Source: Deltaproteobacteria bacterium GWC2_42_11
GTDB taxonomy: Bacteria; Desulfobacterota; GWC2-55-46; UBA9637; GWC2-42-11
Direction of reading: 5' to 3'
Assembly (NCBI GenBank): GCA_001797495.1
Contig: MGPS01000013.1
Coordinates: 21,258 to 76,170 of the forward strand
Length of the DNA stretch: 54,913 bases
The notes beneath the pieces are model-generated. The model saw only the letters and a list, made by a program, of their open reading frames with translations, ran no database searches and was not told where the DNA came from. The position numbers and the translations under genes are program-made. Positions 16,603-54,463 of the stretch are shown in pieces (positions within the stretch are counted from its first letter, which is position 1; the number at the start of each line of letters is the position of its first letter).

Positions 16603-16687
16603 TTCAAAACTCCTCTTTCTGAGTAGAATTTTTAAGTTAAATCTTTATACCATGATAAAATGTAAATAGTCAATAACTTGTCTGACT

Positions 16688-16871
16688 CCAAAAATAGACA
16701 TTGATTTTTGGGGAAACCTGCAAGTTGGCTGCCAGACGAGGCAGCGGACAATTTTTGAGACGAGCCGTATGTTCACCGATACGGTGAGGAACAAAAATTG
16801 GCCGATAACGAAGTATGGCAGCCAAATCGCAGGTTTGTAAAATAGCGAGGTTTTTAATCACTATTTTACGG
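16688..16871 (-). mobile_element. MITE family 1, full-length copy A (184 bp), flanked by the 6 bp direct repeat CTGACT
   Basis: It is the reverse complement of 45014..45198, differing by two substitutions and one terminal G. CTGACT is found at 16682-16687 and 16872-16877. The termini are CCAAAAATAG.../...CTATTTTACGG, and the interior folds as a long imperfect hairpin. Confidence 0.8.
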
Positions 16872-16936
16872 CTGACTCTTGTTTTGCTGTTGTATCGCTG
16901 CCCGTATAAGACCTGCACATAGCGGTTGTTTTTTTC

Positions 16937-31804: not shown

Positions 31805-31941
31805 AGCTTGTTGAAAAACTCAACAATCTCTGATTACACAGATAAAAAATATAGATTACACAGATTTAACCTATTAAATTATCTGTGTAATCGTTTTTAT
31901 AAATCTGTGTAATCATGGCTGTTGAGGTCTTTTTCAACAGC
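31805..31941. mobile_element. 137 bp MITE (family 3) with the 8 bp target-site duplication CTACTAAG
   Basis: CTACTAAG is found at 31797-31804 and 31942-31949. The terminal inverted repeats are AGCTTGTTGAAAAA / TTTTTCAACAGC. The core has GATTACACAGAT twice directly (22 bp apart), then twice inverted. Confidence 0.8.
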
Positions 31942-39307: not shown

Positions 39308-39440
39308 GATGAGTTCGTAAAAAGTCTGAAAACACATATATTTGTCATTCCCGTGAAAACGGGAATCCAGTCTTTTCAAGTAGTTGCACCAGCTCTGGAT
39401 ACCCGCCTTCGCGGGTATGACGACTTTTTACGAGTGCATC
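39308..39440. mobile_element. 133 bp MITE (family 2) flanked by the 6 bp duplication ATTCCT
   Basis: ATTCCT is found at 39302-39307 and 39441-39446. The terminal inverted repeats are GATGAGTTCGTAAAAAGTC / GACTTTTTACGAGTGCATC. Internal hairpins are GTCATTCCCG..CGGGAAT and ATACCCGCCTTCGCGGGTAT. Confidence 0.8.
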
Positions 39441-41165: not shown

Positions 41166-42584
41166 ATGGCAAAAGAAGAGAAACTACTCATAGTTGATGA
41201 TGAAAAAAGCATGAGGGACTTCCTTGAGATAATGTTCAAGAAAGAAGGCTACAAGGTAGCCACCTCAACGTCTGCAGAGGATGGACTTGCCCTGTGTGAC
41301 AAGGGGACATTTGACCTCATCATTACTGATATAAAGATGGGGGGTATGGATGGTGTCTCGTTTGTGGAAAAGGTAAAAGAGGTATGCCCTGAAACAACTG
41401 TCATTGTTATTACAGCATATGCAAGCATTGATAATGCGGTAAAGGCAATGAAGGTAGGTGCGTATGATTATATTTCAAAGCCGTTTAATGTGGATGAGGT
41501 AAAACTCATTGTGCGAAAGGCACTGGATATGCGGCAACTGGAAAAGGAGAATATCGTTCTTAAGAAGGAGTTAAAACAAAAGTACGGTTTTGCAAACCTG
41601 ATAGGTATAAGTTCAAAGATGGTAGATATATATAATTTAATAAAAAGGGTTGCTTCTACAAAAAGCAATATCCTTATTACAGGCGAAAGCGGTACAGGTA
41701 AGGAACTTGTTGCAAGGGCAATCCATTACGAGGGGGACAGGAAGGGTGCCACTTTTATTGCTGTAAACTGTGGCGCAATCCCTGAAAACCTGATAGAAAG
41801 TGAGATGTTCGGGCATCAGAAAGGTGCATTTACAGGTGCAATTGCAAATAAGAGCGGCCTTTTTGAAGCAGCAAACAGCGGTACGATATTTCTGGATGAG
41901 ATTACAGAACTTCCTCTTCACACACAGGTCAAACTCTTACGGGTTATACAGGAAAGGAGTTTCAGGAGGGTCGGCGGTATAGATGATATATCAGTGGATG
42001 TCCGCATAATTGCTGCGTCCAACAGGGATATTGAGGATGAGGTGAAAGAAGGTAGATTCAGGGAGGACCTGTTTTACAGGCTTAATGTCATACCTATATA
42101 TATACCTGCCTTGCGGGAAAGAAGAGAGGATGTCCCTATGCTGGCAGACCATTTTCTTGAAAAATATAGGAAAGAACTCGGCAAGGATATAAAAAAGATA
42201 TCAGAGGAGGCTGTGAAAATTCTATTGCATTACAACTACCCCGGGAATGTCAGAGAACTTGAAAATATTATTGAACGGGCTGTGGCGCTAGAGGCATCTG
42301 ACATAATACTTCCTGAAAGTTTGCCGGAAAACTTACGGTATTCTATTACAGAAATTCTGCCATCTGACTTTAACCTTGAAAAGAAAAGACTTACTCGGCT
42401 GCCGTTTCATATTACAGAAATTCTGCCATCTGACTTTAACCTTGAAAAGACCATAGAATCATACGAAAAGGAAATGTTTCTGAAGGCACTTAAAATGTCA
42501 GGCGGTGTAAAAACTAAGGCAGCAAAACTCCTCGGGCTGAGTTTCAGGTCTTTGAGGTATAAATTTGAGAAATACGGGTTATAG
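41166..42584 (+). CDS. pilR: sigma-54-dependent response regulator PilR (NtrC family)
   Basis: Receiver domain (DDEKS...D...K), AAA+ with GESGTGKE and the GAFTGA loop, and a C-terminal Fis-type HTH. Confidence 0.9.
   Translation: MAKEEKLLIVDDEKSMRDFLEIMFKKEGYKVATSTSAEDGLALCDKGTFDLIITDIKMGGMDGVSFVEKVKEVCPETTVIVITAYASIDNAVKAMKVGAYDYISKPFNVDEVKLIVRKALDMRQLEKENIVLKKELKQKYGFANLIGISSKMVDIYNLIKRVASTKSNILITGESGTGKELVARAIHYEGDRKGATFIAVNCGAIPENLIESEMFGHQKGAFTGAIANKSGLFEAANSGTIFLDEITELPLHTQVKLLRVIQERSFRRVGGIDDISVDVRIIAASNRDIEDEVKEGRFREDLFYRLNVIPIYIPALRERREDVPMLADHFLEKYRKELGKDIKKISEEAVKILLHYNYPGNVRELENIIERAVALEASDIILPESLPENLRYSITEILPSDFNLEKKRLTRLPFHITEILPSDFNLEKTIESYEKEMFLKALKMSGGVKTKAAKLLGLSFRSLRYKFEKYGL
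42345..42449 (+). repeat. perfect 39 bp direct repeat (66 bp period) inside pilR
   Basis: ATTACAGAAATTCTGCCATCTGACTTTAACCTTGAAAAG occurs at 42345-42383 and 42411-42449. It duplicates ITEILPSDFNLEK in the linker before the HTH. Confidence 0.9.
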
Positions 42585-42590
42585 TTCTTA

Positions 42591-43898
42591 CTATCTCTTC
42601 TTAAAGATAAGTTTTACAGGAATTTTATCAAGACCGAACTCTTCCCTTATTCTGTTTATCAGAAATCTCTCATAGGAAAGGTGGATACCTTCAGGGTAGT
42701 TTGTGAAAGCCACAAATGTCGGCGGGTTGATAGAGGTCTGTGTTATATAGTAAACTTTAATCTCTTTATTTTTATACCGCGGCGGTTGGGGTGCCTTCGT
42801 AAATTTATTAAAAAACTTGTTCAGCAAGGATGTCTGCACCCTCGTAGAAAGTTGTGCTGCAACCTCATCGACAACTGCAATTATTTTGTTGATGCGCTGT
42901 CCTGTTAGTGCGGATACAAAGACGACAGGTGCGAACTGAAGGAACTTTGCCTTCCACTTAATCCTCTCCTCGTATTCCTTTGCTGTGTTTGTTTCTTTTT
43001 CAACAGCATCCCATTTATTAATGACGAGGATGCATCCCTTCCCCTTTTCATAGGCTATGCCTGCTATCCTTTCATCCTGCTCTGTGATTCCCTCTACAGC
43101 ATCTATAAGGATGAGCGCCACATCACACCGCTCGATACTCCTTATCGCGTGCACAACAGCGTACCTTTCAATGGTTCTGCTTATCTTACCCTTCTGCCTT
43201 ATCCCTGCTGTATCTATAAGGATGTATTTCCTTTTGCCCATTTCAAAAGATGTGTCAATGGCATCTCTGGTTGTGCCTGGGATATTGCTTACCATAACCC
43301 TTTCATAGCCGACCAGTTTGTTGACCAGTGTTGATTTTCCGACATTAGGTCTCCCGACAACCGCAATCCTTATTCTTTCATCATCCTCATCAATATATTC
43401 TCCGGCAGGGACGAGGAGCCTTATTTTATCTATAAGTTCATCAATGCCTATGCCGTGCTCTGCAGAAACAGGTATTATCTCTTCCATCCCGAGTTTAAAG
43501 AAATCTCCGAGTTTGTTTCCGACTGCAGGTGTATCAACCTTATTTACTGTATATATTACGGGCTTTGAAGTTTTTCTCAGGATGGAAGCAACATCTATAT
43601 CATTTAATGTAAGCCCTGCCCGTGCATCCATCAGGAATATAATTATATCAGATTCTTCAATAGCCATCTGTGCCTGTTCTCTTACCATGGAGAACATTTT
43701 GTCCTTTGCATCAGGTTCAAAGCCGCCTGTGTCAATAAGTGTAAAAGAAATATCTTTATCAGTTACATCTCCGTAGTTTAAATCCCTTGTTACACCCGGC
43801 TCATCCAGAACAATAGCCTTTTTCCTGCCGACTATCCTGTTAAACAGACATGATTTGCCAACATTGGGTCTGCCGACTATTGCAACAATTGGTTTCAT
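42591..43898 (-). CDS. der: ribosome-associated GTPase Der (EngA)
   Basis: Two tandem G domains (GRPNVGKS twice) plus a KH-like C-terminus. Confidence 0.95.
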   Translation of the reverse strand: MKPIVAIVGRPNVGKSCLFNRIVGRKKAIVLDEPGVTRDLNYGDVTDKDISFTLIDTGGFEPDAKDKMFSMVREQAQMAIEESDIIIFLMDARAGLTLNDIDVASILRKTSKPVIYTVNKVDTPAVGNKLGDFFKLGMEEIIPVSAEHGIGIDELIDKIRLLVPAGEYIDEDDERIRIAVVGRPNVGKSTLVNKLVGYERVMVSNIPGTTRDAIDTSFEMGKRKYILIDTAGIRQKGKISRTIERYAVVHAIRSIERCDVALILIDAVEGITEQDERIAGIAYEKGKGCILVINKWDAVEKETNTAKEYEERIKWKAKFLQFAPVVFVSALTGQRINKIIAVVDEVAAQLSTRVQTSLLNKFFNKFTKAPQPPRYKNKEIKVYYITQTSINPPTFVAFTNYPEGIHLSYERFLINRIREEFGLDKIPVKLIFKKR

Positions 43899-44785: not shown

Positions 44786-44883
44786 GATTATAAAATACCA
44801 CCCAGTAAAACAGTTGTCAATCTATGACGGGACTAAATATGAACCTACAGGAGGCTTATCTTACAAAGGGGCATGAAAATCTC

Positions 44884-44981
44884 GCTGCTGCCTGCCCCGC
44901 CAGTGGCACAGGCTTCCAGCCTGTGATGATAGGCAAGATGCCTGTCCCACCAGGTTTGTAGGCGGGGCAGGCAGCAACAGC
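44884..44981. repeat. about 100 nt branched palindrome (15 bp outer stem enclosing two hairpins)
   Basis: GCTGCCTGCCCCGCC (44887-44901) pairs with GGCGGGGCAGGCAGC (44961-44975). Inner hairpins are CACAGGC/GCCTGTG and AGGCA/TGCCT. Confidence 0.6.
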
Positions 44982-45013
44982 AAAAAGATATTTTCGGGCA
45001 AAGGTATAGGTAA

Positions 45014-45198: not shown

Positions 45199-45212
45199 AG
45201 GTAAAATGGGGG

Positions 45213-45261: not shown

Positions 45262-45337
45262 GGGGCTGTAGCTCAGTTGGGAGAGCGACAGGCTGGCAGT
45301 CTGTAGGTCAGGGGTTCGATCCCCCTCAGCTCCACCA
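45262..45337 (+). tRNA. tRNA-Ala (anticodon GGC)
   Basis: A 76 nt cloverleaf folded by hand: acceptor GGGGCTG/CAGCTCC with the G3:U70 Ala identity pair, anticodon loop CTGGCAG, a GGTTCGATCC T arm, and an encoded CCA. Confidence 0.93.
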
Positions 45338-45359: not shown

Positions 45360-45527
45360 TTATACGACATTAGAAACACCGTTGAAACCCCTTACTGTGA
45401 TAAAATTGTGATACTTTTCCCCGTGCAAAGTCTTGTCCATCACATCTACTGCTTTAGCCTTATGGCTTGGTGCAAGGTGAGCATACCTCATAGATCCTAA
45501 TTTGGCATTTGCATAATGCCTCGTCAA
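45360..45527 (-). pseudogene. 3' remnant of a tyrosine recombinase (integrase) gene next to tRNA-Ala
   Basis: The minus-strand frame reads ...GSMRYAHLAPSHKAKAVDVMD...*. This is the catalytic-Tyr RYAHL C-terminal box of phage-type integrases, with no upstream body. Confidence 0.55.
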
Positions 45528-45771: not shown

Positions 45772-45931
45772 GGTTTAAAATATGCTGCTGTACTATCGCT
45801 TTGTCAACAGGTTTTTGCTATCTAAACAATACCCGAGTAATAAAATGGGCAGTTCTATTTAAACTGCTCTGATTGGCATGTATCAGAGGTATTGCACCTT
45901 CTGGATTTTTCCTCCCATCTTTTCACCCTAC

Positions 45932-46000
45932 CTACTTCATGACAGCCGTTGACAAAAACTCCTCAATAGAGATGCCGATTCCACCGACCAGCAGTTTCTT
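45932..46000 (-). pseudogene. 3'-terminal fragment of a DUF4143 ATPase paralog
   Basis: It reads KKLLVGGIGISIEEFLSTAVMK*, matching the C-terminus of the 46185..47147 ORF (KKLVVGGSGISIEEFLSTAVMEWVK*). Confidence 0.6.
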
Positions 46001-46113
46001 TACAAATTACTCAAAATTATTAAACCCCACTGACCAACCTTTGTCGCAGCCCTCTGGTATTTTGTCCTTAAAAATAGTATTGTTTGTCTGACAAAATAAG
46101 GAGGTTAAACCTT

Positions 46114-46185
46114 ATACCCCTCTATTCCCACAGCAGATTATCCACATACGAAACCTGCCCCCTCAAATATAAACTCCAATATCTT
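46114..46185 (+). pseudogene. 5' fragment of a Cas4-like PD-(D/E)XK nuclease gene (start codon mutated to ATA)
   Basis: It reads IPLYSHSRLSTYETCPLKYKLQY and parallels the 47619 copy. It is preceded by AAGGAGG and ends at the junction with the ATPase 3' end. Confidence 0.5.
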
Positions 46186-47376
46186 TATTTTACCCACTCC
46201 ATAACAGCCGTTGATAAAAACTCTTCAATAGAGATGCCGGAGCCGCCAACCACCAGTTTCTTTTGTGGTTTGAAGATAGAAAAAAATGCCTCCATTCCTG
46301 CAAGGGTATCCTTACTTCTGCCGCTTTTTACCTCTATTGCAACAATGATTTTGCCCAGACGCATGACAAAGTCCACCTCCTTGCCCCGTTCGCGCCAGTA
46401 AAACACCTCTGCCTTTGTGCTGGTTGTGCCATTAACCAAATGAGCGCCAACAGCCGTTTCCACCAGCCTGCCCCAAAAGTCGCGATTGGTTATGACTGTG
46501 TCAAATGAGATATTAGACTGAGCAGTCATCAGCGCTGTATTCAGAACCTGCATCTTCGGGCTTGACCCCCGCTGTTTAATCTGTTTTCCGGCAAATTTCT
46601 GCAAGCCTGTCAACATGCCGGCGCCTGCGAGCAGTTCTAGATAATGTGCAAGGGTTGTGGTGTTGCCTGCATCCTGCAACTGCCCCAGCATCTTTTGGTA
46701 GGATAAAATTTGGCCTGAATAATCACAGCCTAAAAGAAACAGTCTTCTGAGCAGCGCCGGCTTGTCCACGCGGGTCATAAGAAGAATATCCCTTGAGAGA
46801 GTAGTCTCAATCAGCGAGTCAATAATATACCGCGACCAGCGCTCCTGATCATCTATTAAACCGGCTGCACCGGGATAGCCGCCGAAATATATAAACTGCT
46901 CAACATCCCAGCCAAAGGCATCTTTCATTTCAGAGAATGACCAGTGGGTAAGGGGGATAATCTCAAAACGTCCTGCAAGGCTTTCAGTCAACCCGTGCTG
47001 GATAAAAAGCGGAGATGAGCCAAGCAATACAACCTTCAGCCGAGTTTTTTTAGCAGTATCTTCGTCCCACAGACGCTTTACAATCTCAGACCAGCCTGAT
47101 ACCTTCTGCACCTCATCAAGGGCAAGAAGCGTCCCCCCTTTTTTCATTTTTCCTTGCTTGAAGCCTGCCTATTTCCCATTGCTGCTCAATCCAAACCGCG
47201 CTTTTCAATGTCGGCTCATCTGCTGATGCATAATGACTGGGAACCTTGAGCGCCTCTATAACCTGTCTTATCAGGGTGGTTTTACCCACCTGCCTCGGCC
47301 CTGCCAGAACCTGCAGAAATCTCCTCGGCTCCTTAAGTCTTGATAAAAGGGTCTTATATATGGGACGGCTATACAT
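46185..47376 (-). pseudogene. AAA_14 + DUF4143 ATPase (C-terminal PD-(D/E)XK-like domain), frameshifted in an A6G6 run
   Basis: The N-terminal ORF 47116..47376 has Walker A GPRQVGKTT. The body ORF 46185..47147 starts at LLALDEVQK (Walker B) and ends with EVDFV...AIEVKSG. The frames meet at GAAAAAAGGGGGG (plus strand 47133-47144). Confidence 0.75.
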
Positions 47377-47434
47377 TACGAAACCTCAATTTAAGTCCAT
47401 AAAATGCAGCGATAACAAAAGGTTGCAGGCTTGC

Positions 47435-47474
47435 TTACAAATTACTCAATATCTTGAGTAATTTTACTCAAAAT
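47435..47474. promoter_or_regulatory. operator-like site with three TTACTCAA half-sites in the divergent ATPase/nuclease intergenic region
   Basis: The sequence TTACAAATTACTCAATATCTTGAGTAATTTTACTCAAAAT contains the perfect palindrome ATTACTCAA-TATC-TTGAGTAAT. A collapsed version, TTACAAATTACTCAAAAT, recurs at 46000-46017. Confidence 0.5.
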
Positions 47475-47618
47475 AGAATAAATGTCAAATGTTTTAATCT
47501 TTAAAGATTGACAGGCTTTTGTTAAAGGTGTAAGATTTAAAATACTGACAGATGGAAACGATTCAACATTGTTCAAAAAATAAAGACAACCGCAAAGGTA
47601 TTTAAGGAGCCTCATTGT

Positions 47619-47750
47619 ATGCCCATCTATTCCCACAGCAAATTATCTACCTACGAAACCTGTCCTCTCCAATACAAACTTCAATTATTGATAATGATGA
47701 GATTACAAAGAAGGGCGTTATCACCTCACCCACTCCATAACAGCCGTTGA
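47619..47750 (+). pseudogene. 5' fragment of a Cas4-like PD-(D/E)XK nuclease gene
   Basis: MPIYSHSKLSTYETCPLQYKLQ is the usual N-terminus of PDDEXK_1-type nucleases. The ORF then runs into a third copy of the ATPase 3'-end sequence and stops. Confidence 0.55.
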
Positions 47751-47767
47751 CAAAAACTCCTCAATAG

Positions 47768-51318: not shown

Positions 51319-53721
51319 ATGACAAAAATAAAGATATACGCAGCAATCTTTCTCTTCTCATTTTCATCCCTTGCATATGAGATAGCCTTAATAAGGATAT
51401 TCTCCATCTCGCTATGGTATCATTTTGCATTTATGGTTATCAGTATAGCAATGCTAGGCATTGGCGCAAGCGGCACGGTTCTTTCACTCTATCCCAAAAT
51501 TGCAGGGGCGACCCCTGTGGCCAGCCAAAAGGGAGGAGATATCTCCTTCCCCTATGAACGGATTGGAATATACGGGCTGCTCCTTGGCGCGGGCATATCC
51601 TTAAGTTATATGCTTTCAAACCAGATACCCTTTGACCCCGTAAGGCTTGCATGGGAAAGAGTTCAGATTTTTTATATATGCCTTTACTACATGATACTTT
51701 CTATCCCATTTCTCTTTTTCGGGTTTTGTATGGCATCTGCGTTTTCCATAATAAGTGAAAAATCAGGGCTGTTATATGGCTCAGACCTCATTGGCGCAGG
51801 CACAGGCTCAATTGTCATTCTATTTTTATTGAGCATAACGCCTCCTGAGAAGGCTATTATTATTATATCTTCACTGGCATTATTGGGTGCATTTATCATT
51901 GGGCAGCGAAGGATAAAGATTGCTGCGCTGTGCTTGATTGCATCAAATTTCTTCCTTTTAATCATGCCGGACATCATTACTCCCAGAGTGTCTCCGTACA
52001 AAGCCCTTCAGGCTGCTTTAAAATTTCCTGGGGCAGAACATATCAGGACATACAACAGCCCATATTCACGTATAGACACATTTAAAAGCCCTGCGGCACG
52101 ATTTGCACCTGGGCTGAGCCTGAAATATCTTGACCCGCTTCCTGAACAGATCGGCATTTCCATAGATGGAGGTGAGATAAATGCTCTTACCGACGCCCGG
52201 GATAACCATGCACTCAGGTTTTTAACATACCTCCCCTCTGCCCTTTCTTATGAGATTGGCAAAAAAACGGATGTGTTAATTCTTGAGCCAAAAGGAGGCA
52301 TGGAGGTATTGCTTGCCCGCTATTACAACTCAAAAAACATCTATAAGGTTGATTCCAACCCGCAGGTCATAAAGGTCATACGAGATGATTTTACAGAATT
52401 TTCTCATGGTATCTATAGCCAGGATACATGGTCTGGCATGGGAAGGTCATGGCTTAAAAAGAGAGATAAAAAATTTGATGCCATTGATATTCCCTTAATG
52501 GGCGCATCACCAGGAGGCTTTTTTGGAATCTCAGAGGACTACAGATTTACTGTTGAGGCATTCAAAGAATATCTGGGGCATTTAAAAGATAATGGCATAC
52601 TGAGCATGCACCTCTTCATTCTCCATCCGCCAAGGGCAGAGTTAAGGCTTTTAAACACCATAGTTTTGGCAATGGATGAGAGCGGGATAGCGGATGCAGA
52701 TAAAAATATTGCAGCTATAAGAAGTTGGGGAACTGTATCTATCCTTGCAAAAAAATCGCCATTTTCTTTTGATGAAATAGAATCAGTCAAAAAATTTTGC
52801 AGGGAAAGGAGGTTTGACCTCATATATCTTCCGGGGATTACAGAACAAGAAACAAATATTTATGTGCGGCAGCCTTCAAATGAATATTTCGCGGCATTTA
52901 AGAGTATTCTTGATTTAGAAAATAGAAAGAGTTTTCAGCATAATTATATCTTTGACATAAGCCCTGTCCGGGATGAAAATCCGTTCTTTTCTTATTACTT
53001 AAGGCTCAAGAATATAAAAACAATCTACAGGCAGATGGGTGAAAAGTGGCAGTATTTTATAGAAGAGGGGTATCTTCTCCCTGTGGTTTTTATACAGGCT
53101 CTGCTCCTGAGTATCATTTTTATATTTCTCCCTGCTGTTGCAAAAAGGCATGGAGATGCGAAGGTTAAGGGCGGTTATTCATCCCTCATCTATTTTGCTC
53201 TCATCGGCATTGGCTTTATGTTTGTAGAAATCACCATGATTCAGAAGATGATACTCCCTCTGGAAAATCCTTCTTATGCTGTCAGCGTTGTCCTTACATC
53301 CATACTGATTAGCTCGGGTGCGGGAAGTCTTTTGAGCCACAAATTTTCCTTGCTAAGAAACCGGGCTATGCTTTTTGTAATCTCATTTCTCATCATTGCA
53401 TACAGCCTTGTTATACCCGCAATCTCTGATGTTATTTCTCTCCATGCATTGTCGGTTAAAATTGTCATCTCATTCATTGTGCTTATTCCGCTCGGTTTTC
53501 TCATGGGGATACCGTTTCCGCTCGGGATTAAATCACTCGGCGCAGGAAACCACTCTCTCATTCCGTGGGCATGGGCCGTCAATGGTTGTTTCTCTGTTCT
53601 AGCGCCTATACTCACCATCATGCTGGCTATAGTCATTGGTTTTAAGGCAGTTCTCTGGATGGGCGGTATTTCATATGTCCTTGCCTTTTTTACCTTGCCT
53701 TCTCCCAAAAATAGACATTGA
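51319..53721 (+). CDS. 800 aa polytopic membrane protein with a central spermidine-synthase-like domain
   Basis: About 7 N-terminal and about 6 C-terminal TM helices flank a soluble region arranged like the fused spermidine synthase-like membrane proteins. The usual GGGDG SAM-site motif is not evident (it reads LEPKGG). Confidence 0.45.
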   Translation: MTKIKIYAAIFLFSFSSLAYEIALIRIFSISLWYHFAFMVISIAMLGIGASGTVLSLYPKIAGATPVASQKGGDISFPYERIGIYGLLLGAGISLSYMLSNQIPFDPVRLAWERVQIFYICLYYMILSIPFLFFGFCMASAFSIISEKSGLLYGSDLIGAGTGSIVILFLLSITPPEKAIIIISSLALLGAFIIGQRRIKIAALCLIASNFFLLIMPDIITPRVSPYKALQAALKFPGAEHIRTYNSPYSRIDTFKSPAARFAPGLSLKYLDPLPEQIGISIDGGEINALTDARDNHALRFLTYLPSALSYEIGKKTDVLILEPKGGMEVLLARYYNSKNIYKVDSNPQVIKVIRDDFTEFSHGIYSQDTWSGMGRSWLKKRDKKFDAIDIPLMGASPGGFFGISEDYRFTVEAFKEYLGHLKDNGILSMHLFILHPPRAELRLLNTIVLAMDESGIADADKNIAAIRSWGTVSILAKKSPFSFDEIESVKKFCRERRFDLIYLPGITEQETNIYVRQPSNEYFAAFKSILDLENRKSFQHNYIFDISPVRDENPFFSYYLRLKNIKTIYRQMGEKWQYFIEEGYLLPVVFIQALLLSIIFIFLPAVAKRHGDAKVKGGYSSLIYFALIGIGFMFVEITMIQKMILPLENPSYAVSVVLTSILISSGAGSLLSHKFSLLRNRAMLFVISFLIIAYSLVIPAISDVISLHALSVKIVISFIVLIPLGFLMGIPFPLGIKSLGAGNHSLIPWAWAVNGCFSVLAPILTIMLAIVIGFKAVLWMGGISYVLAFFTLPSPKNRH

Positions 53722-53751
53722 TTTTTGGGGTTTTTAATCGCTATTTTACAG
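53704..53751 (-). mobile_element. MITE family 1, 48 bp internally deleted copy C, flanked by the 6 bp direct repeat CCTTCT
   Basis: CCCAAAAATAGACATTGATTTTTGGGG is joined directly to TTTTTAATCGCTATTTTACAG, so both termini of copies A/B are present without the central ~137 nt. CCTTCT is found at 53698-53703 and 53752-53757. Confidence 0.75.
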
Positions 53752-54463
53752 CCTTCTCCACCTCGCCAATCATAGGGACAAATCTCACGGAGGTTATCTC
53801 CTCAAGGTTAATCTCCCCCTTTATCTTTGTGGCAAGAATAAGGGTCTGGCTGTAGACAGTGCTGCCAAGCGGGATAACCATCCTTCCGCCTTCCTTTAAT
53901 TGTTTTATCAGCGGCGGTGGAATATGATTTGCAGCAGCAGTGATGATTATGGCATCAAACAATGCATATTCTTCCCAGCCAAAATATCCGTCCCCATACT
54001 TAACCTTTACATTTTTATAGCCCATCTCTTTAAGCCTTTTTTCAGCCTTTTCTGCAAGTTTTTTTCTAATCTCTATGGTATAAACCTCTTTCACTATCTC
54101 TGCAAGAATAGCCGCCTGATAGCCTGAACCTGTGCCTATCTCCAGAACCCTGTCAGAAGGCTTAAGCCGCAATACCTCGGTCATCAAAGCAACTACATAG
54201 GGCTGGGATATGGTCTGATCTTCATCTATGGGGAGGGGATAATCTTCATATGCTGAATTCTTAAGACGCTCATCAACAAAAAGGTGTCGGGGCATCTTTC
54301 CCATCACATCCAAAACCTTTTTATCCGTGATACCCCGTCCTTGTATATCCTTCTTCACCATTATTTGCCGTTTTTTTTCATATACATCCTGTGAATAGGC
54401 AGGGAGGATGGATAGAATCAGTATGCTTAAGAAAAAAAGAGGGATGTATTTACGGTTTGTCAT
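53741..54463 (-). CDS. pcm: protein-L-isoaspartate O-methyltransferase with an N-terminal signal peptide
   Basis: [15 protein letters not shown] and the [17 protein letters not shown] motif. The first ~24 aa are hydrophobic and signal-like. Confidence 0.9.

Follow-up and report, generated by a model that had tools for sequence, protein, structure and literature searches.

The repeat and its neighbours in the window

The window analysed in this study is a 54,913-nucleotide stretch of contig MGPS01000013.1 from Deltaproteobacteria bacterium GWC2_42_11. It contains a 184-bp repeat, present as two copies of 184–185 bp (copies A and B) and one 48-bp copy with an internal deletion (copy C), each lying between its own 6-bp direct repeats. 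The copies, their parts and the adjoining promoters are listed below.

16644–16673, minus strand: putative dcd promoter, predicted from the sequence, with a −35 of TTGACT (16673–16668), an 18-nt spacer and TGgTATAAA (−10 at 16649–16644)
16682–16687: left target-site duplication of copy A, CTGACT; present once in the empty-site contig of run X3
16688–16871, plus strand: copy A, full length (184 bp), comprising a left hairpin, a central imperfect hairpin and a right hairpin
16688–16713, plus strand: left hairpin of copy A
about 16714–16836, plus strand: long central imperfect hairpin of copy A
16837–16869, plus strand: right hairpin of copy A
16872–16877: right target-site duplication of copy A, CTGACT
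45008–45013: target-site duplication of copy B on the side of the right hairpin, AGGTAA
45014–45198, minus strand: copy B, full length (185 bp), in the orientation opposite to copy A
45199–45204: target-site duplication of copy B on the side of the left hairpin, AGGTAA
45213–45241, plus strand: tRNA-Ala(GGC) promoter, TTGACA, 17-nt spacer, TG-TATTTT
45262–45337: tRNA-Ala(GGC)
53698–53703: left target-site duplication of copy C, CCTTCT
53704–53751, plus strand: copy C (48 bp), an internal-deletion derivative made up of the left hairpin and the outer (distal) arm of the right hairpin
53752–53757: right target-site duplication of copy C, CCTTCT

A first-pass annotation of this DNA had described the three copies with the direct repeats CTGACT, AGGTAA and CCTTCT, and all of them were found at the positions listed above. 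Alignment also reproduced its statement that copies A and B are two substitutions and one terminal base apart. Neither terminal motif of the element occurred in any of 100 shuffles of the window. The element is non-coding, and the open reading frames that cross the copies are all spurious. Copy C lies inside the overlapping 3' ends of two convergent genes.

The two ends of the element, 5'-CCCAAAAATAG... and ...CTATTTTACGG-3', form an imperfect terminal inverted repeat (TIR), CCCAAAAATAG / CCGTAAAATAG, in which 9 of 11 positions match (about 14 of 18 across a longer stretch). This relationship between the ends was absent from the first-pass annotation.

Both full-length copies stand close to a promoter. 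The −35 hexamer of the putative dcd promoter begins 13–14 nt from the left tip of copy A, and this promoter stretch is identical in the empty-site allele of run X3 described below. Its −10 (TATAAA) is non-canonical, and a promoter scan made no call here because the T at position 6 is missing. Copy B has the tip of its left hairpin 14 nt from the start of the tRNA-Ala −35. The copies had been placed just upstream of the promoters of ffh and tRNA-Ala; this holds for tRNA-Ala, but 65 nt separate the right end of copy A from the ffh promoter, and it is the dcd promoter that matters for this copy.

Secondary structure and covariation

We folded the element as RNA and as DNA. It forms terminal hairpins of 9 bp and 11–12 bp on either side of a long, imperfect central one, in which the outer stem measures about 21 bp and has two mismatches; the folding energies are −75.6 kcal/mol (RNA) and −46.8 kcal/mol (DNA), with a z-score of about −10. 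The three-part shape proposed earlier from the letters was thus borne out, and it is formed by both strands, as RNA or DNA. Covariation, which the first-pass annotation had named as a point to check, is present: eight pairs show double-sided changes, and none of 500 shuffles attained the observed score. Paired cells make up 97.9% of the total. On the strand shown, G-U cells outnumber A-C cells by 34 to 10, with 16 of the G-U cells coming from a single conserved pair. We infer that the pairing of the hairpins is conserved through compensatory changes and kept by selection.

The strong fold, the eight covarying pairs and the excess of G-U over A-C cells are all features that speak for structured non-coding RNA genes, or cis-regulatory RNA motifs, whose spread would be secondary. 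In addition, a 190-nt contig from an unrelated sediment metatranscriptome, a single contig of low depth, corresponds to a full related copy. Transcriptome runs from the site itself are tiny SOLiD sets and gave no coverage. We nevertheless regard an origin as RNA genes as very improbable. The only matches in the window at Rfam 15 gathering scores are to tRNA-Ala, the element has no conserved promoter or terminator of its own, and the insertion features described in the next two sections weigh against it as well.

Family size, copy structure and mobility

To the earlier question of whether relatives carry more copies, an exact scan of one genome per species with the left hairpin gave a clear answer: at least 76 loci in nine groundwater Deltaproteobacteria/Thermodesulfobacteriota metagenome-assembled genomes (MAGs), a lower bound. 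The five richest MAGs have 30, 17, 14, 6 and 5 loci. In several assemblies the contigs with the window's dcd gene end within the element, and in groundwater runs words of the element reach depths hundreds of times greater than the flanks do; both are usual for a repeat of high copy number.

Copy length varies between 48 and 349 bp and is most often 183–185 bp; longer copies carry GC-rich hairpin cassettes within the central hairpin. Between two species, one pair of orthologous insertions differs by a single 33-bp cassette, which indicates that interiors alter in place. We considered whether the cassettes are dispersed elements in their own right and rejected this, as they were found almost only within copies of the repeat. 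This exchange of interiors for unrelated hairpin cassettes is a further point against RNA genes. At the other extreme are about 14 solo hairpins of 26 bp, CCCAAAAATAGACATTGATTTTTGGG, nine of which have flanking direct repeats of their own; duplications thus still flank the 26-bp and 48-bp forms, again at odds with RNA genes.

When CCC...ACGG was taken to define the borders, 38 of the 53 copies with both ends had a direct repeat of 5 bp or more immediately outside them; the number expected from shuffling the flank pairings is 0.99. Their lengths are 5 bp (n = 13), 6 bp (n = 17) and 7–8 bp (n = 8), and the remaining 15 copies lack a clear duplication. The duplication of 6 bp given in the first-pass annotation is therefore right for the three copies in the window; across the family it has to be widened to 5–6 bp, occasionally 7–8 bp.

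An empty site was identified for copy A. A 681-bp contig of run X3, which differs from the window by about six SNPs, joins position 16681 to position 16872; it omits exactly 190 bp (184 + 6) and leaves one CTGACT, and seven letters at the junction fit both sides. This precise empty site in a close relative makes copy A polymorphic and hence young, in agreement with the recent mobility that had been suspected. The corresponding allele for copy B was not found in the contigs of the public runs, and junction queries against all of the fetched loci returned self-matches only. Target duplications together with a precise empty site are not what RNA genes would leave.

The surviving copies of the family are intergenic. 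Relative to tandem genes, 17 lie in the same orientation and 12 in the opposite one (p = 0.46), and this lack of bias argues against a strand-specific gene.

An autonomous partner of the IS1380 family

We searched a metagenome collection for occurrences of the left tip in which the next base was not the T of the hairpin. The scan yielded 89 loci from very diverse environments. Most are other MITE-like elements (MITE, miniature inverted-repeat transposable element) that carry this 18-nt TIR at each end and have GC-rich hairpin interiors of unrelated sequence. At two loci the TIRs enclose a transposase gene. In L106 they are 1620 bp apart; in L115 the same TIRs are 2994 bp apart, a distance that includes a nested second insertion sequence (IS) with an rve_3 open reading frame. 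The proteins encoded at L106 and L115 (430 and 442 aa) score 247 and 262 bits with the NCBIfam model NF033539, 'IS1380 family transposase', whose equivalog cut-off is 180 bits, and match Pfam PF13701 (DDE_Tnp_1_4) with E-values of 4e-31 and 2e-34. At E ≤ 1e-30 a protein search returned 348 homologues. These usually lie on contigs close to 1.6 kb in length, and one of the homologues, from a Deltaproteobacteria MAG, is named an IS1380-family transposase by NCBI.

Eight more IS insertion sites were found in L173–L182. These elements are about 1.62 kb long, with TIRs of the form CCC[ACT]AAAATAGACATTG[ACG], and are flanked at four of the sites by 5-bp duplications (AAAAA, TCTGT, GAGCT and AATCT). 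Members of the IS1380 family, as summarised in ISfinder, are about 1.5–2 kb long with a single open reading frame, TIRs beginning with CC and duplications of 4–5 bp. The partner IS fits these traits, having a length of about 1.62 kb, one open reading frame, TIRs starting with CCC and 5-bp duplications at four sites.

The tip of the repeat, CCCAAAAATAGACATTGA, is the TIR of these ISs of about 1.62 kb: its first 18 nt equal the TIR of the IS copies in L106, L115 and L173–L182. The left end agrees with the left inverted repeat of L106 at 27 of 30 positions, with no internal match, and the right tip, CCGTAAAATAGCGATT, agrees less well with the IS TIR (about 14 of 18 positions). As the likeness is confined to the terminal 17–30 nt, the repeat falls under the TIR-only (type II) MITEs as defined in PMC10969869.

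An L115-type IS is present in the window's own sample (runs X1 and X2) at 98–99% identity over nearly its whole length, with a depth of about 4.6 compared with about 8.7 for the unique flanks of the window. The IS and the MITE thus co-occur at the level of the sample. The absence of a transposase from the window, noted earlier, was confirmed with tblastn, in which an IS1380 transposase query gave no hits to the window or to the 76 family loci (about 600 kb). Paired tips 400–4000 bp apart in the family loci belong to neighbouring MITEs only and enclose no partner IS.

Two other candidates were examined as the partner and rejected. Repeated long segments in the family loci are orthologous regions or an RHS/YD-repeat gene, and an IS-like insertion within the copy at L008 has different ends and runs off the end of its contig. 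At L170, on a short contig, the open reading frame adjoining a matching tip is an HTH_28 fragment that scores below the Pfam cut-off.

Taken together, the repeat is a non-coding element of less than 500 bp with TIRs, duplications above chance, filled and empty sites and termini in common with an autonomous IS. The proposal of a MITE in the first-pass annotation is supported by the further copies, the duplications in 38 of 53 cases, the empty site, the IS termini and the lack of orientation bias; the search that it had suggested for an autonomous element with matching termini led to the IS1380-family ISs. We have high confidence that the element is an IS1380-derived MITE. In full, it is very probably a non-autonomous, TIR-only (type II) MITE derived from an IS1380-family clade with the TIR CCCAAAAATAGACATTGA, landing upstream of −35 hexamers. 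Termini identical to those of IS1380-family ISs are also difficult to reconcile with RNA genes. The first-pass annotation had held that covariation plus stable expression would point to a structured RNA family; covariation was indeed found, and the evidence for a transposable element outweighs that reading. The covariation and the metatranscriptome contig still leave space for a role at the RNA level that a plain MITE model does not need.

Hairpins at each end, dispersed solo hairpins of 26 bp and stems kept through compensatory change are also seen as grounds for a palindrome of the REP/REPIN or IS200/IS605 type, moved as single-stranded DNA by an HUH enzyme (RAYT or TnpA-Y1). Elements moved by HUH enzymes produce no target duplication and insert beside a fixed tetra- or pentanucleotide. 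The present repeat instead has duplications of 5–6 bp and variable sequence, which are single in the empty site; the conserved TTGAC described below lies 13 nt away and does not abut the end; and the tips equal the TIRs of DDE-type IS1380 elements. No RAYT or TnpA was found beside copies in the open reading frames of a few loci inspected, a weak negative. We consider HUH-mediated movement the least plausible of the explanations weighed here, with hardly any probability left to it. Membership of REP/REPIN–RAYT, of IS200/IS605-derived elements and of Rfam families was rejected, as each fails on the defining feature that was tested.

Fixed spacing to −35 hexamers

The closeness to promoters, remarked on only in passing in the first-pass annotation, proved to be a family-wide rule of fixed spacing. 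In the IS copies, in the MITE family and in the unrelated MITEs with the same tip, one end lies 12–15 nt (mode 13) from a TTGACA-type −35 that reads outward.

For the MITE family, we counted −35-like hexamers (TTGAC, TTGAT or TTGCA, reading away from the element) in 136 flanks of 70 copies. Hexamers starting 12–15 nt from the end were found in 29 flanks, compared with 2.6 expected (Poisson p = 7e-21), and 17 of these hexamers start at exactly 13 nt. Other flank positions have about 0.6 hexamers each, and the opposite strand shows no peak. A credible −10 follows at 17 nt in most of the 29 flanks, and a full match to −35/N16–18/−10 within 45 nt was found for 24 of the 70 copies, against 2% of random 80-nt windows. 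The MITE may have either of its ends towards the promoter. The next open reading frame or tRNA is directed away from the element in 20 of 26 flanks with the hexamer and in 46 of 95 others (p = 0.014).

The independent metagenome set gave the same result. The hexamer is present at this distance in 26 of 75 distinct flanks, 21 of them at exactly 13 nt (p = 5e-20), and lies on exactly one side in 28 of 35 two-ended elements (15 left, 13 right). Among the IS copies it is found beside the right inverted repeat, the end downstream of the transposase gene, at 8 of 10 sites. About 60% of the copies of the MITE family, copy C among them, lack a −35 starting 12–15 nt from an end.

The promoter is host DNA and does not belong to the element, since the duplications directly adjoin the tips and the stretch from tip to −35 is variable. 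Insertion is non-random: the duplicated target lies at about −48 to −43 of a pre-existing promoter that is still intact. This landing spot is the only intergenic place that spares both the upstream gene and the core promoter.

The spacing could in principle have arisen by selection after near-random or merely AT-biased insertion, if survivors are those that spare genes and core promoters or if the T-rich tip acts in an UP-like manner at about −52 to −56. Several observations are consistent with this: the surviving copies are all intergenic, the tips read outward as ATTTTTGGG or ATTTTACGG and so place a T-tract where the distal UP subsite would be, and 40–60% of the family copies break the spacing rule. 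Purifying selection could also sharpen an apparent targeting. However, filtering predicts a sharp lower limit with a broad tail, and the data show a spike, with 17 and 21 flanks in the two sets at exactly 13 nt, compared with about 0.5–0.7 at each other position. In many unrelated organisms, ISs of 1.6 kb and MITEs whose interiors are unrelated show the same spacing, and the young, polymorphic copy A already follows the rule. A single-position spike common to such different elements in unrelated hosts is not explained by purifying selection alone. Selection as the source of the spacing therefore seems unlikely to us, though it is the strongest of the competing explanations, and we attribute the spacing to active targeting with moderate confidence. 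Stated more broadly, we lean towards the view that a widespread, uncharacterised IS1380-family clade and its MITEs actively use sigma-70 promoters as landing beacons, inserting one helical turn upstream of the −35.

Possible mechanism of insertion

An IS1380-family DDE transposase acting in trans would recognise both tips of the element, CCCAAAAATAGACATTGA on the left and the degenerate CCGTAAAATAGCGATT on the right, and insert it through a staggered cut of 5–6 bp. If the spacing reflects active targeting, the transposase would itself select the target. Two ways of sensing the −35 can be envisaged. Both TIRs contain TTGA[CAT] 14 nt from the tip, which mirrors the TTGAC 13 nt out in the flank; a single DNA-binding surface might therefore read the motif in the TIR and the TTGAC in the flank alike, as a form of pseudo-end recognition. 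Alternatively, the transposase could dock on promoter-bound RNA polymerase or sigma factor. In either case, a spot that spares the upstream gene and the core promoter would aid survival of the insertion.

ISEcp1 and ISPme1 tolerate poor surrogate ends (PMC9330008). Such tolerance in the IS1380 family would explain the degenerate right tip and the solo forms of 26 bp.

As to the hairpins, the most likely reason for their presence is that snap-back or cruciform folding would bring together both tips of an element shorter than the persistence length for synapsis. Transcribed hairpins may have a secondary role, for example in stabilising the 3' end of an upstream mRNA or in insulating the promoter.

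Comparison with known elements

Among characterised elements, the partner IS belongs with the IS1380 family (ISEcp1, ISPme1 and ISSsu5): it passes the IS1380 model, is about 1.6 kb long, and has TIRs that start with CC and 5-bp duplications. Its transposases share only about 25% identity with those of ISSsu5 and ISEcp1, the nearest named relatives. Characterised members of the family bring an outward promoter of their own, whereas the present clade lands beside a resident promoter.

Site-selective transposons are few in bacteria; Tn7 at attTn7, the ISs that target REP sequences and group IIC introns at terminators are examples, each of which has been instructive or has become a tool. Outside bacteria, Ty3/Ty1 and the Dictyostelium TRE elements are eukaryotic retroelements tethered by transcription factors. 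The likeness to them is one of analogy and not of membership: they insert at a near-fixed distance upstream of Pol III promoters, a 'safe haven' that spares coding sequence, whereas the present element is a bacterial DDE transposon at sigma-70-type promoters, for which tethering to RNA polymerase is a hypothesis.

Correia elements duplicate TA. They also differ in having promoters of their own, whereas the present MITE adjoins host promoters at a fixed spacing. Correia/NEMIS, Nezha of cyanobacteria, ERIC and BOX/RUP are non-coding stem-loops bounded by TIRs, with filled and empty sites; the interior of BOX is modular or nested, and some such elements affect the expression of neighbouring genes (PMC3184786, PMC10969869). 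The present MITE differs from all of them in its partner IS family and its duplications.

Among MITEs described from related bacteria, the closest is Chunjie of the delta-proteobacterium Geobacter uraniireducens. It is AT-rich and 178–235 bp long, with very stable hairpins, many size variants, an intergenic location, TIRs and direct repeats (PMC3184786, PMC10969869). The present MITE resembles it in size, AT-richness, stable hairpins, size variants, intergenic location and the possession of TIRs and direct repeats. Chunjie differs in having 21-bp TIRs and 9-bp direct repeats (PMC3184786), which point to another transposase family. It has no sequence relationship to the present MITE, and a rule of promoter spacing has not been reported for it. 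REP/REPIN sequences are short, dispersed extragenic palindromes with conserved stems (PMC3116915). REPINs are without target duplications and linked to HUH enzymes, in contrast to the present element with its duplications and IS1380 termini.

A review of prokaryotic MITEs describes intergenic location, size heterogeneity and nesting, and no fixed promoter spacing (PMC10969869, section 3.3). We found no description in the literature of −35 targeting at a fixed distance, either for MITEs or for IS1380 elements, and no report of IS1380-derived MITEs in the literature searched. We accordingly rate the element as a further bacterial MITE and its target rule as a new variation on the behaviour of such elements.

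Implications of the landing rule

If the rule is one of active targeting, it would represent a bacterial counterpart of the promoter-tethered integration of Ty3, and a DDE family that finds the upstream edge of promoters with the precision of a single turn would add an example of target choice to the short list given above. It would also account for the high copy number that a small parasite reaches in compact genomes without killing genes. Each insertion at the canonical distance would sever the core promoter from the DNA upstream of about −48, where UP elements and class I activator sites lie, and replace that DNA with a hairpin-rich block ending in a T-tract. In many uncultivated lineages, the elements would then serve as natural insulators or as modifiers of upstream promoter elements. 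For practical purposes, CCCAAAAATAGACATTGA can serve as an annotation marker for repeats that break metagenome assemblies, and the copies flag promoters in uncultivated bacteria.

Hairpin cassettes and solo hairpins

One insertion site was common to two species (L043:5531-5748 and L054:6687-6871, both family loci from MAGs), with flank identity of ~87%. The MITE copies at this site differed by one 33-bp hairpin cassette, CCCGTTGC...GCAACGGG, indicating that cassettes are gained or lost in place. This cassette is related to the CCACTTGC...GCAAGTGG cassette found in other copies, in reverse orientation and with compensatory changes in the stem.

Solo 26-bp hairpins (L011, L029, L030, L063, L064, L068, L071, L083, and others) were bracketed by 5-7 bp direct repeats of their own and likewise obeyed the 13-nt promoter rule, by which the element end lies 12-15 nt from an outward-reading -35 hexamer. 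The solo hairpin of L068 was flanked by two divergent -35 boxes, at distances of 13 and 15 nt. Where the neighbouring genes are in tandem, the loop orientation of the solo hairpins was the same in eight cases and opposite in one, and full copies differed in this respect. Related mini-hairpins with other stems, CCGTAAAAT... and CCGAAAAAT..., were also present.

Beside the matched tip, the flanks showed a second, smaller cluster of -35-like hexamers at a distance of 23-25 nt (8 of 75 cases), approximately one helical turn past the main peak. The metagenome loci concerned were as follows.

L084, L087, L095, L132, L162, and L165: -35-like hexamer 23-25 nt from the matched tip, in its flank

Copy C at two convergent gene ends

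Copy C, the 48-bp internal-deletion form, lies where two genes converge.

51319-53721, + strand: membrane protein ORF
53698-53757: copy C with its target duplications, in the overlapping 3' ends of the two convergent genes
53741-54463, - strand: pcm ORF

The stop codons of both genes now come from copy C, as the TAG inside AAAATAG at each tip. When the insert was taken out, the C-terminus of the membrane protein changed from ...LPSPKNRH* to ...LPSPPRQS*, and that of the pcm product from ...GEVEKAVK* to ...GEVEKAR*.

Nested elements and the IS1380 copy of the sample

Nesting of transposons within transposons was seen at L115:858-3851 and L008:5709-5918. At the former, a metagenome locus, the IS1380 copy hosts a second IS, whose ORF is an rve_3 protein of 391 aa. 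At the latter, a MITE copy is broken by another element, whose ORF begins MNKFSSIFGQIL. An insert starting GAGACTGTGTCGTAATC... was common to the wider-superfamily MITEs in L103, L120, L126, L143, and L163. The L115 IS1380 element, as it occurs in the sample of the window itself (runs X1 and X2), is missing a single base at L115:961, 17 nt inside the transposase ORF; the gene could be frameshifted, or it could begin at another start codon.

Surroundings of copy B and other repeats

A second, unrelated palindromic repeat, CTGCCTGCCCCGCC...GGCGGGGCAGGCAG (44862-44996), adjoins copy B. In run X3, the public run with a close relative, word depth within this repeat (44889-44969) reached ~22,000, versus ~10-20 in the unique flanks. 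The tRNA-Ala gene is followed immediately downstream by a short ORF.

45360-45527, - strand: short ORF, apparently a C-terminal remnant of a tyrosine integrase

Beyond this integrase-like ORF, diverged direct repeats (D1, D2, and D4; region 45912-47767) flank ORF 46185-47147, which from its sequence looks like a putative AAA-ATPase. The region at tRNA-Ala (45360-45527 and 45912-47767) has the appearance of a decayed island.

Elsewhere in the window, another short palindromic repeat, of the GGATTCCCGC...GCGGGAATGAC type, has copies at 318-357 and 39342-39430 and occurs in both direct (D9) and inverted (I4) orientation. An exact 41-nt direct repeat (D6; 42344-42384 and 42410-42450, spacing 66 nt) lies a short way past the GTPase gene 42591-43898 on its 3' side, and a 35-nt inverted repeat (I2; 31831-31915) is made up of ATCTGTGTAATC units.
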